Source: Escherichia coli
GTDB lineage: Bacteria > Pseudomonadota > Gammaproteobacteria > Enterobacterales > Enterobacteriaceae
Direction: 5' to 3' (one strand)
NCBI RefSeq assembly: GCF_041248615.1
Contig: NZ_CP158426.1
Length of the DNA: 64,000 nucleotides
The position numbers were made by a program, and so were the translations under genes. Positions 53,691 through 55,957 of this stretch are shown in pieces. Within the stretch, counting starts at the first letter, position 1. The number at the start of each line of letters is the position of its first letter. Under the pieces are notes generated by a model. That model had not been told where the DNA came from. It made no database searches and was given only the letters and a program-made list of their open reading frames with translations.

Positions 53691-54081
53691 TTTCCTCTTA
53701 GTCTATATTTGAGATGGTGAGTGAACGAGTGCGTTTTGCTGCCATCTCTGTCCCCCAAAAAATAATCAGTATGAATTGATTGGAGAGCACGACTCCGCTA
53801 TTTGACCTTAAGAAAGTCGGCAAGTAATAGTCATAAGTGAGTCTCTTCACTGGCAGACACCTTAGAGATTTACCATCAACTCCCATTCTCAAACAAACAT
53901 TAATTATTATCAACACATTCACATTAATTATAAATTATCTCAGACCTTCCTGATAAAAAGATATTAAAGTGAAACATTTTGTTTTTCACATTTTAGTTCA
54001 TCCCTTTTAGGCGTAAATAAAGGTAAAAAATAACAATACTATTTTTCTTTCACAAAAGAATTAACAAAAGGTTTTTCAAGG

Positions 54082-55215
54082 ATGAGTGATATTATTTACC
54101 TGAACATAACCGGAGAACAACAAGGATGTATTTCCTCTCGTTGTGGAACGAGCGCATCAATAGGTAATCGCTGGCAGATTGGCCATGAAGATGAAATCTT
54201 CGCGTTCTCGCTCTCTAATAGTATTACGAATACAGGCAAAGGGTCACAATTGCATGGCCTTAGTTTCTGTAAATTGATTGACAAAAGCTCCCCGTTACTT
54301 ATTAACGCTATTAACAATAACGAGCAGTTGTTCATGGAGTTTGACTTCTATCGGATCAATAGATTTGGTCGATGGGAGAAATATTACAACATTCAACTTC
54401 GCGGCGCGCTCTTATCAGCAATCAATCACCTGTTTACTGAGAACAATCTGGATACAGAAACCATCACTGTCAGTTATGAATATATACTCTCCAGGCATCT
54501 GATTGCTAATACTGAATTTAGTTATTTGGCATTTCCCGATAACTACAACCGTCTGTTTATACCACGGCCAAAAACTAAAGATGATAATGGCCTCAAAACA
54601 CTCAATAGTAAAGCGGTTGGCAGACTGCTTGCTGCTGGCGGCATATACAATGGGAATATCGAAGGATTCAGGGAAACAGCAAACAAGTTGGGAGGAGATG
54701 CACCTGCTGGTTACGATCAAGTTATGGATAACAAAGGGTTACTCATCGCTGGTGCTTCAATAGTTGCTGGAGTTGTTCTGGGAAGAATGAGATTCCCTGA
54801 TTTGGAATCACTTGAGCATTTCGGAGCCAGAGGAGCAGTATCAGGAAGACCATTTAATCCCGACCTTGCCGGTGGTCCAATTGAAAACCTGACGATAGAT
54901 GGCGTAACAATCAACAGGGAAGGTATCGCTATTGTTGAAAAGCATATCTCCAGATTTGATCATGATCCAGCTAATGATGTAATGATTTCAAGGCTAAAGA
55001 AAATAGCAAATAAAGAATTGCTTCCTGAAAAATACGATCTGAACTACTATACTCATGAATGTCGCGAGTATCAGCGTTATTGTAATTTAGGATGGGAAAC
55101 AGGTGAACCGAAAGGTTTAGATGGATATGAATTATGGAATAATGTACATACTGCAACTCTAGAAGACTTTAAAATTAAAGATACTGACTTATTTCATCCG
55201 GATGCAACAAAATGA
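54082..55215 (+). CDS. Hcp (TssD) domain fused to a C-terminal extension of about 210 aa: putative orphan T6SS Hcp-ET effector
   Basis: ATG at 54082 with AAGGA SD; residues 1 to about 150 match the Hcp family (IYLNITGEQQGCI..SIGNRWQIGHEDEIFAFS..LSFCKLIDKSSPLLINA..FYRIN); Gly/Ala-rich linker with a short hydrophobic stretch (LLIAGASIVAGVVLG), then a domain with no motif I can assign. Confidence 0.8.
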   Translation: MSDIIYLNITGEQQGCISSRCGTSASIGNRWQIGHEDEIFAFSLSNSITNTGKGSQLHGLSFCKLIDKSSPLLINAINNNEQLFMEFDFYRINRFGRWEKYYNIQLRGALLSAINHLFTENNLDTETITVSYEYILSRHLIANTEFSYLAFPDNYNRLFIPRPKTKDDNGLKTLNSKAVGRLLAAGGIYNGNIEGFRETANKLGGDAPAGYDQVMDNKGLLIAGASIVAGVVLGRMRFPDLESLEHFGARGAVSGRPFNPDLAGGPIENLTIDGVTINREGIAIVEKHISRFDHDPANDVMISRLKKIANKELLPEKYDLNYYTHECREYQRYCNLGWETGEPKGLDGYELWNNVHTATLEDFKIKDTDLFHPDATK

Positions 55216-55469
55216 CGATTACGATAGTTGAATTTAACGTGCTGAAAGTTATGGCTGAGAAAGATATTGACTGGAGCTGGATGGTGCTGGATCGTACTTT
55301 AGCTATACGAAATATTCCAGGATTTGGCAACGTAGCGAATATCGTAACAAAGCTGGTTAATCATGGGTTGGTTGATATCGTAAATGGTGAGGGCAACTCT
55401 AGACCACGCTACAGAGTTTCTCAATATGGATTGAATCTTATCAAAGAACAACAAGACAACCTCTTCTGA
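55212..55469 (+). CDS. putative cognate immunity protein, copy 1 (85 aa)
   Basis: ATG at 55212 overlaps the toxin stop (ATGA at 55212-55215), implying translational coupling; paralogous to the next ORF. Confidence 0.6.
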   Translation: MTITIVEFNVLKVMAEKDIDWSWMVLDRTLAIRNIPGFGNVANIVTKLVNHGLVDIVNGEGNSRPRYRVSQYGLNLIKEQQDNLF

Positions 55470-55528
55470 TCCAGCCATTACAGGAGCATGATTTACATTG
55501 TGATCTTTCAATAAGATACTCATCAATT

Positions 55529-55789
55529 TTGGTACAGAATATCGTGATCACTAAAAATGAACTTAACGTGCTGAACGTTATGACTGAGAAAGATATAAAC
55601 TGGAACTGGATGAATCTCGATCGCACACTATCCATAAGGCAAATTCCAGGATTCGGGAATGTTGTTAACATTGTTAACAAATTAGCTAACGAAGGTTTGG
55701 TTATTATTGAGGATAGCGGGAATAAGTCTATGCCTCACTACCACGTTAGTGAAAAGGGATACAATCTCGTGCAACGTGAGAATAAATAA
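55529..55789 (+). CDS. putative immunity protein, copy 2 (paralog, 86 aa as drawn)
   Basis: about 60% identical to copy 1 over ~74 aligned residues (by eye), including IPGFGNV.NIV.KL...GLV; begins on TTG (55529) or GTG (55544), no ATG before the conserved core, no obvious SD. Confidence 0.5.
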   Translation: MVQNIVITKNELNVLNVMTEKDINWNWMNLDRTLSIRQIPGFGNVVNIVNKLANEGLVIIEDSGNKSMPHYHVSEKGYNLVQRENK

Positions 55790-55957
55790 CGTAGCGTTGA
55801 TTACTGAACGGAATCACTCAAAACTGTGTTTTGCGAAAAAAACGATTCGGTTATTTCTGCTCCTGAAGATCAGCTTCAATCTGGCACTCATGCAAAATGG
55901 CTTCCAGTGCTGGAAGCCATTATCGTACTGCAATTTACAGTGACTCGTTAATATTCG

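Follow-up and report, generated by a model that had tools for sequence, protein, structure and literature searches.

Predicted cognate and orphan immunity genes of a winged-helix family behind an Hcp-toxin fusion gene of Escherichia coli

The chromosome of Escherichia coli can carry, between ysgA and metE, a small islet encoding a predicted secreted toxin and two small proteins whose role is our subject here. We analysed the islet in a stretch of 64,000 nucleotides from contig NZ_CP158426.1 (assembly GCF_041248615.1; henceforth the window), where it occupies 2.2 kb in the order ubiB-ubiJ-ubiE-rmuC-udp-ysgA, islet, metE-metR and stands out by a guanine-plus-cytosine (GC) content of 0.33-0.44 (53.7-55.9 kb) versus 0.51-0.57 in its flanks. 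Its three genes all lie on one strand, the plus strand of the window: a gene fusing the tube protein Hcp to a toxin domain, followed by two small genes termed copy 1 and copy 2. A low-GC leader (53691-54081), which begins at the left junction after ysgA and is presumed to hold the promoter region of the toxin operon, contains promoter-like sites at 53739-53766 and 53802-53831, by consensus match only; a search of the leader for operator-like palindromes or repeats gave none that was convincing. An initial annotation of this DNA, made from the letters alone, had read the two small genes as a candidate immunity pair belonging to the upstream toxin.

The upstream gene is indeed of the toxin type, since it encodes an Hcp fusion with a 230-residue extension. 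It spans 54082-55215 (377 residues, with a TGA stop codon at 55213-55215) and opens with an Hcp (TssD) tube-protein domain, residues 1-150 (54082-54531), recognised by Pfam, NCBIfam and PDB matches: residues 1-147 match PF05638 (E=4.8e-14) and TIGR03344 (124.9 bits versus a cut-off of 58.9), and the Hcp entry 6a2v of the PDB matches at E=8.5e-15. The extension beyond Hcp has no Pfam match. Its first part is a conserved linker, residues 151-245 (54532-54816), with the motif NSKAVGRLLAAGG..GGDAPAGY and a hydrophobic stretch, GLLIAGASIVAGVVLG; Pfam does not match this segment taken by itself either. By tblastn, the linker is common to loci with differing toxin domains (L002-L005, L009, L010 and L018) and occurs also in Hcp-less loci (L011, L012, L015 and L017). 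Altogether, it was seen upstream of at least five different toxin domains and downstream of at least three different N-terminal domains. The linker is likely a recombination substrate and perhaps also a membrane-translocation segment.

The remainder of the fusion, residues 246-377 (54817-55215, 132 residues), is the C-terminal toxin domain, here in a form that we call allele A. It belongs to an unclassified, acidic, all-helical family, and its structural model, of high confidence (predicted local distance difference test, pLDDT, 95.8), shows a short N-terminal segment followed by four helices. A profile search returned 713 homologues, including proteins from Pseudomonas, Burkholderiales, Planctomycetes and Acidobacteria; none of the 713 contains a Pfam domain, and no solved homologue was found. 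Residues H43, R46, F47, E81 and R87 (domain numbering) are among those invariant in the family, while H80, R83, E84, Y88, W107, N108 and H111 are nearly so. Some homologues or fragments bear the NCBI labels 'colicin' or 'HNH endonuclease'. Our results do not support an HNH or colicin DNase assignment, as there was no Pfam hit even at E<=10 and the four-helix model is not a beta-beta-alpha-Me fold; the acidic character of the domain (median pI ~5, net charge ~-9) would also be unusual for a nuclease.

Copy 1 (55212-55469, 85 residues, WP_001521776) is the predicted cognate immunity gene and encodes what we term a type 1 protein with a predicted winged helix. Its ATG at 55212 overlaps the TGA of the toxin gene (aaaATGAcg), as the initial annotation had noticed. 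Copy 2 (55544-55789, 81 residues, WP_001445370), predicted to be an orphan immunity gene of type 2, is counted here from a GTG. An alternative TTG start at 55529 would give 86 residues and a spacer of 59 bp, the distance given originally, and corresponds to c4753 of strain CFT073. The GTG at 55544 is most likely the true start, because it is the RefSeq annotation and aligns with the ATG of the orthologue in another E. coli strain, SCPM-O-B-8794 (L019), which carries a second toxin allele, allele B; the spacer is then 74 bp (55470-55543). This spacer contains one promoter-like site (55492-55520, by consensus match only). When it is aligned with the allele-B locus, homology starts only at the first codon of copy 2, and nothing recognisable is left of a displaced allele-B toxin gene.

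The two small proteins are paralogous, with 47 identities in 80 gap-free positions (59%; BLASTP E=3e-32), in keeping with the figure of about 60% first reported, and both the shared core W.WM.LDRTL.IR.IPGFGNV.NIV.KL and the C-terminal RYRVS/HYHVS motifs are present as described. Their genes have a synonymous divergence (dS) of ~1.5 and a ratio of non-synonymous to synonymous divergence (dN/dS) of 0.20. With such a dS the two are old paralogues and not the product of a recent tandem duplication. RefSeq names the small genes of the islet 'hypothetical protein' or 'MarR family transcriptional regulator', and a literature search on c4751-c4753 and on winged-helix immunity proteins found nothing relevant. 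One 94-residue protein from a metagenome contig (P0010) is chimeric, joining the first 54 residues of copy 1 to a type-2 C-terminal part, which suggests recombination between paralogues or else an assembly artefact.

The fold of the small proteins was predicted with AlphaFold2 from a 35-sequence alignment (pLDDT 89.3; predicted template-modelling score, pTM, 0.79). In the model, helix H1 and a short strand precede H2 and H3, after which come a beta-hairpin wing and, at the C-terminus, helix H4; it thus bears out the earlier guess of a small winged helix. The best PDB matches in Foldseek were all regulators of the MarR/PadR kind (RosR, PadR, MarR and MepR), with template-modelling (TM) scores of 0.7-0.78 and identities of 12-24%; only one match had E <1e-3, and no immunity protein was among the top 50. 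By sequence the likeness fades. Searched against Pfam, the 35 family members had no match at E<=0.001 to MarR or to any other profile, the best being Imm27 at 0.028 in two of the 35, and the small reading frames of the islet gave nothing significant against NCBIfam, PADLOC, PHROGs or PDB sequences. Below threshold there were winged helix-turn-helix matches (EarA, HTH_45 and HxlR) and MarR chains from the PDB at E=0.2-0.3 at best, and one remote family member matched a PHROG 'transcriptional regulator' at E=9e-4.

Several features set the family apart from the regulators that it resembles in fold. Its members have 80-95 residues, about half the length of MarR proteins (~140-150), and their model comprises a winged helix-turn-helix with a single C-terminal helix, without the dimerisation helices of MarR. 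Residues W21, W23, L26, D27, R28, G37, L48, G52 and G73, which include those of a WxWxxLDR motif, are invariant throughout the family. The wing, by contrast, varies with the type. Type 1 proteins have RPRYRVS, type 2 proteins MPHYHVS and type 3 proteins MDYYRVS, and the remote members have MPTYSIT; a basic wing is confined to type 1, and helix 3 has no conserved basic or polar contact residues. The 'MarR family' label describes a fold and not a demonstrated membership. The family is small: a profile search of 1.84 billion representative proteins found just 62 family clusters, nearly all of 75-105 residues, and plasmid and phage collections yielded only three and one weak matches, respectively. 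An 851-residue protein with 15 matching stretches in the profile search (P0269) is a repeat protein and was set aside as a false positive.

If the small proteins are immunity proteins, they should follow their toxin from genome to genome. For close as well as remote members, taken from genomes, plasmids and metagenomes, we searched the surrounding DNA with profiles built on the toxin domain and on the small protein. In 13 distinct loci a family member stands directly 3' of the same toxin domain, overlapping its stop codon or at most 8 bp away. These are the window, E. coli SCPM-O-B-8794 (L019), Lonsdalea (L011), Enterobacter sp. (L012), E. chuandaensis (L017), Pantoea agglomerans (L015), Mangrovibacter (L020, with a degraded toxin gene), plasmid pAF18_1 (L027) and five metagenomic contigs (L022, L023, L025, L030 and L035). 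The 4-bp overlap of the window recurs in L011, L012, L015, L017, L023 and L030, and overlaps of 7-11 bp are found in L019 and L027. The N-terminus of the linked toxins varies: it is Hcp in E. coli, a domain of ~140 residues (MLHHYQAKSLD) without Pfam or NCBIfam match in Pantoea, Enterobacter sp., Lonsdalea and pAF18_1, a further and different uncharacterised domain in E. chuandaensis, and PAAR in L023 and L035 (with a weak prePAAR_I hit in L035), where a DcrB/DUF1795 gene of the Eag chaperone family lies upstream. A domain of the MLHHYQAKSLD type also takes the place of Hcp in a Kosakonia toxin (L018). Even among eight remote members, with 25-38% identity to copy 1, five still come directly after the toxin domain. 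Because the N-termini vary and most remote members keep the toxin domain, we conclude that what the small-protein family accompanies is the toxin domain, rather than Hcp or any one locus. The remote members for which the scan detected no upstream toxin domain (L024 and L033/L034, from metagenomes) lie in two kinds of context, one prophage-like, with terminase and recombinase genes, and the other a run of small genes preceded by a Gp49/HigB-like gene and the gene for a large leucine-rich-repeat kinase protein.

The two types of small protein in the islet correspond to two alleles of the toxin in E. coli. At the same ysgA/metE site, the locus of strain SCPM-O-B-8794 encodes an Hcp domain 97% identical and a linker 95% identical to those of the window, followed by a toxin domain that is only 76% identical and has a different tail (..LNDLYHQDALDYDD). 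This allele-B toxin is followed by a single small gene, whose product shares 86% identity with copy 2 and 60% with copy 1. Between the two loci dS is 0.17 for Hcp, climbs to 0.58 for the toxin domain and reaches 1.66 for the immunity gene next to it, as expected if a module of toxin domain and immunity gene was exchanged by recombination. A third toxin subtype (tail DLYHPDAPLW) is paired with a third immunity type on plasmid pAF18_1. Each toxin subtype thus has its own immunity type (A/type 1, B/type 2, C/type 3), and across eight pairs the identity matrices of toxin and immunity protein are correlated (r=0.92, Mantel p=6e-4), the small protein diverging faster than the toxin (59% versus 76% identity between the alleles, and 25-36% versus 59% for a remote pair).

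We found the islet in 857 of 5,426 complete E. coli genomes, on the chromosome every time; CFT073, 536, ATCC 25922 and NRG 857C are among its carriers. Both small genes match at full length and at least 95% identity in 729 genomes and the copy-2 part alone in 119, and allele B contiguous with a type-2 gene occurs in ~124 complete genomes, O121 RM8352, O145:H28 and O166:H15 among them. The islet has also been hit repeatedly by insertion sequences (as in L028, strain WP4-S17-ESBL-08, and L029, strain CE10): at least 14 genomes have IS1 in the leader, 5' of tssD, in CE10 the toxin gene is parted from the type-2 gene by two IS3 copies, and in Shigella sonnei (P0136) the allele-B toxin gene is truncated by IS1 and the immunity gene retained.

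Family members are also found apart from their toxin domain. Such orphans occur in Citrobacter (L002-L005, L009 and L010), Kosakonia (L016 and L018), Pseudescherichia (L014) and Brenneria (L013). The Citrobacter loci encode Hcp effectors whose toxin domains are of other kinds; an unrelated small gene comes after each effector gene, and a family member follows as the last gene. The effector motifs are PD-(D/E)xK-like (by eye; preceding the orphan in L002-L005), WSSHVHPDG and an HNH-like HHKLP, and the orphan is of type 1 after one cassette and of type 2 after another. Kosakonia and Pantoea wallisii show the same orphan arrangement behind the MLHH-type carrier, in Pseudescherichia vulneris a type 1 and a type 3 gene stand in tandem without a toxin gene, and Brenneria has a lone copy. 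Compared with the E. coli genes, the Citrobacter orphans are under purifying selection (dN/dS 0.12-0.135; 0.135 between copy 2 and a type-2 orphan 77.5% identical to it) and hence persist as proteins although no cognate toxin gene adjoins them. One Citrobacter region (L005, 2154-6255), with two tandem Hcp-toxin cassettes, their own downstream genes, an Imm35 gene and orphans of type 2 and type 1, is a compact archive of displaced immunity genes.

We consider it likely that copy 1 encodes the cognate immunity protein to the allele-A toxin and copy 2 an orphan immunity protein to allele B. The islet would then be an orphan type VI secretion system (T6SS) effector cassette, whose first gene joins Hcp, linker and allele-A toxin domain. 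The ATGA overlap presumably couples the translation of copy 1 to that of the toxin. The copy 1 protein is predicted to bind the toxin domain in the producer's cytoplasm and, by neutralising it, would guard the cell against self-intoxication as well as against toxin injected by sister cells. Copy 2, as a member of the same family with a different specificity class, would act on the toxin encoded by allele B at the same chromosomal site. We read it as an orphan because of its 86% match to the allele-B gene and its dS of ~1.5 from copy 1. An A-type module of toxin domain and immunity gene probably recombined in through the Hcp/linker region, ahead of a resident type-2 gene. The initial proposal of an immunity pair thus stands in so far as linkage, co-variation and orphans mark both genes as being of the immunity type of polymorphic toxin loci, and gives way in so far as the two would not serve one toxin; likewise, the suggestion that copy 2 is a tandem duplicate is at odds with its closer match to the gene of the other allele. 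The neighbourhood survey that had been recommended places members behind the toxin domain in the 13 loci and, as orphans, behind unrelated toxin cassettes too.

A number of observations weigh against this reading. Copy 2 starts with GTG, has no obvious Shine-Dalgarno sequence and is separated by the 74-bp gap, and its dN/dS against the allele-B gene is 0.66 (4 synonymous and 11 non-synonymous changes), so it may be drifting. The fold of the small proteins is that of DNA-binding regulators and permits DNA binding too, and NCBI labels many family members 'MarR family transcriptional regulator'. Three of the eight remote members have no toxin domain detectable upstream by profile scan, and the Citrobacter Hcp cassettes each end in a family member whatever their toxin type, which fits a cassette-associated regulator as well. 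Finally, correlated divergence of neighbouring genes is expected from co-inheritance alone, so that the matrix correlation shows modular co-transmission and not contact.

The alternative that fares best accepts copy 1 as the immunity gene and regards copy 2 as a decaying relic of a displaced cassette, unexpressed or non-functional. The weak start, be it GTG or TTG, the want of a clear ribosome-binding site, the gap and the dN/dS of 0.66 all fit this view, as do truncated variants present in the protein cluster of copy 2. Against it, the frame is intact in sampled genomes, the 729 complete genomes carry the two-gene stretch at full length, and the comparison with the Citrobacter type-2 orphan gives the low dN/dS cited above; the promoter-like site in the spacer is weak evidence in the same direction. 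The ratio of 0.66 itself rests on 15 substitutions and fits relaxed constraint or diversifying selection alike, the latter being equally expected if it is immunity specificity that diversifies. On balance we hold decay of copy 2 to be unlikely, and infer that the gene is expressed.

A second alternative gives the small proteins a dual role, in which they would bind the toxin domain and also, through the winged helix, bind DNA to autoregulate the cassette, as many type II antitoxins do. Toxin-first toxin-antitoxin modules with helix-turn-helix antitoxins are known, which speaks for this idea, as do the regulator-type fold and the basic wing of type 1 (RPRYR), and it would accommodate all of the linkage evidence for immunity. 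Yet the residues expected to contact DNA differ between family members, no operator-like repeats were found in the leader, and the toxin is a secreted effector and not the toxin of a toxin-antitoxin module; we regard a dual role as distinctly improbable, though less so for type 1. That the small proteins are simply MarR/PadR-like transcription factors of the cassette or of other genes, with no neutralising function, is less probable still: the Foldseek matches, the faint winged helix-turn-helix, MarR-chain and PHROG matches, the NCBI names and the Citrobacter arrangement favour it, but the linkage tracks the toxin domain across Hcp, PAAR and uncharacterised N-termini with start/stop overlap, the proteins of 80-90 residues lack the MarR dimerisation helices and match no regulator profile at E<=0.001, the type 1 wing arginines are replaced in MPHYH, MDYYR and MPTYS with no conservation of helix 3 contacts, no consistent target operon lies beside the orphan copies, and no palindromic operator was seen in the leader.

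The logic of the proposed division into cognate and orphan immunity has precedents in other polymorphic toxin systems. For Rhs and contact-dependent inhibition (CDI) loci, orphan immunity genes and displaced toxin/immunity modules are an established concept. As in those loci, the window keeps a toxin-less immunity gene downstream of what would be a newer module, behind a conserved upstream region that likely serves as recombination substrate, and its orphan may protect against non-kin toxins. It differs in that the carrier is Hcp and not Rhs or CdiA, and in that the spacer holds no orphan toxin fragment. The idea of orphan immunity is also mentioned in PMC10539506 and PMC10470768.

Among T6SS effectors, the nearest likeness is to the Hcp-ET effectors of Ma et al. 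(2017), which have ETI immunity genes downstream, as these are given in two reviews (PMC6730261, PMC6099711). They share with the window an Hcp N-terminus with a C-terminal toxin, an orphan locus outside the T6SS cluster and one or more immunity genes directly downstream, and for Hcp-ET3-4 a single effector is reported to be followed by more than one gene of the immunity type, as in the window. Going by the same descriptions, the all-helical toxin domain of the window matches, by Pfam, none of the five named clans, and its downstream genes are of two predicted specificity types, one of them probably cognate to another allele, as opposed to repeats of one immunity gene. Identity with Hcp-ET1/ETI1 was rejected, as there is no HNH match, and the HNH-like Hcp effector of Citrobacter L010 (HHKLP, with a 164-residue downstream gene) belongs to a different cassette from that of the window. 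In Citrobacter koseri, T6EC4/T6IC4 is an orphan operon of an Hcp-fused effector with an unannotated toxin, whose downstream gene reduced toxicity experimentally (PMC11148199); T6EC4 is reported as Tox-REase-5-like (PMC11148199), unlike the window toxin domain, the two being compared by description.

The remote toxin-domain homologues of L023 and L035 have the layout DcrB, prePAAR-PAAR, toxin, immunity of PAAR effectors with Eag (DUF1795/DcrB) chaperones, such as the Tse6 class, which implies T6SS delivery to a cytoplasmic target. These contexts (the prePAAR hit being weak), together with the hydrophobic segment of the linker, suggest that the toxin of the window also acts on a cytoplasmic target; here the domain is carried by Hcp, with the hydrophobic linker segment in place of the prePAAR transmembrane helices.

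Three elements appear to be newly defined by this analysis: a predicted immunity family (winged helix with WxWxxLDR), a predicted toxin family, and an asymmetry between alleles A and B in E. coli. The cassette is carried by about one in six complete E. coli genomes, in which its genes bear no annotation beyond 'TssD', 'hypothetical' or 'MarR regulator'. If our reading is correct, both the toxin domain family and the immunity family are new, neither being in Pfam, and a misleading regulator annotation would be corrected. Compatibility would moreover be asymmetric, with allele-A strains immune to both alleles and allele-B strains devoid of type-1 immunity, which would matter for how E. coli lineages of the gut and uropathogenic ones compete. 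The islet would also offer a clean natural example of how an orphan immunity gene arises among Hcp-borne effectors.

At the right edge of the islet, between copy 2 and the 3' end of metE, lies a perfect 12-bp inverted repeat (55896-55921, AATGGCTTCCAG tg CTGGAAGCCATT). It is probably the metE terminator, since TTTT follows it on the minus strand, and it perhaps acts in both directions.

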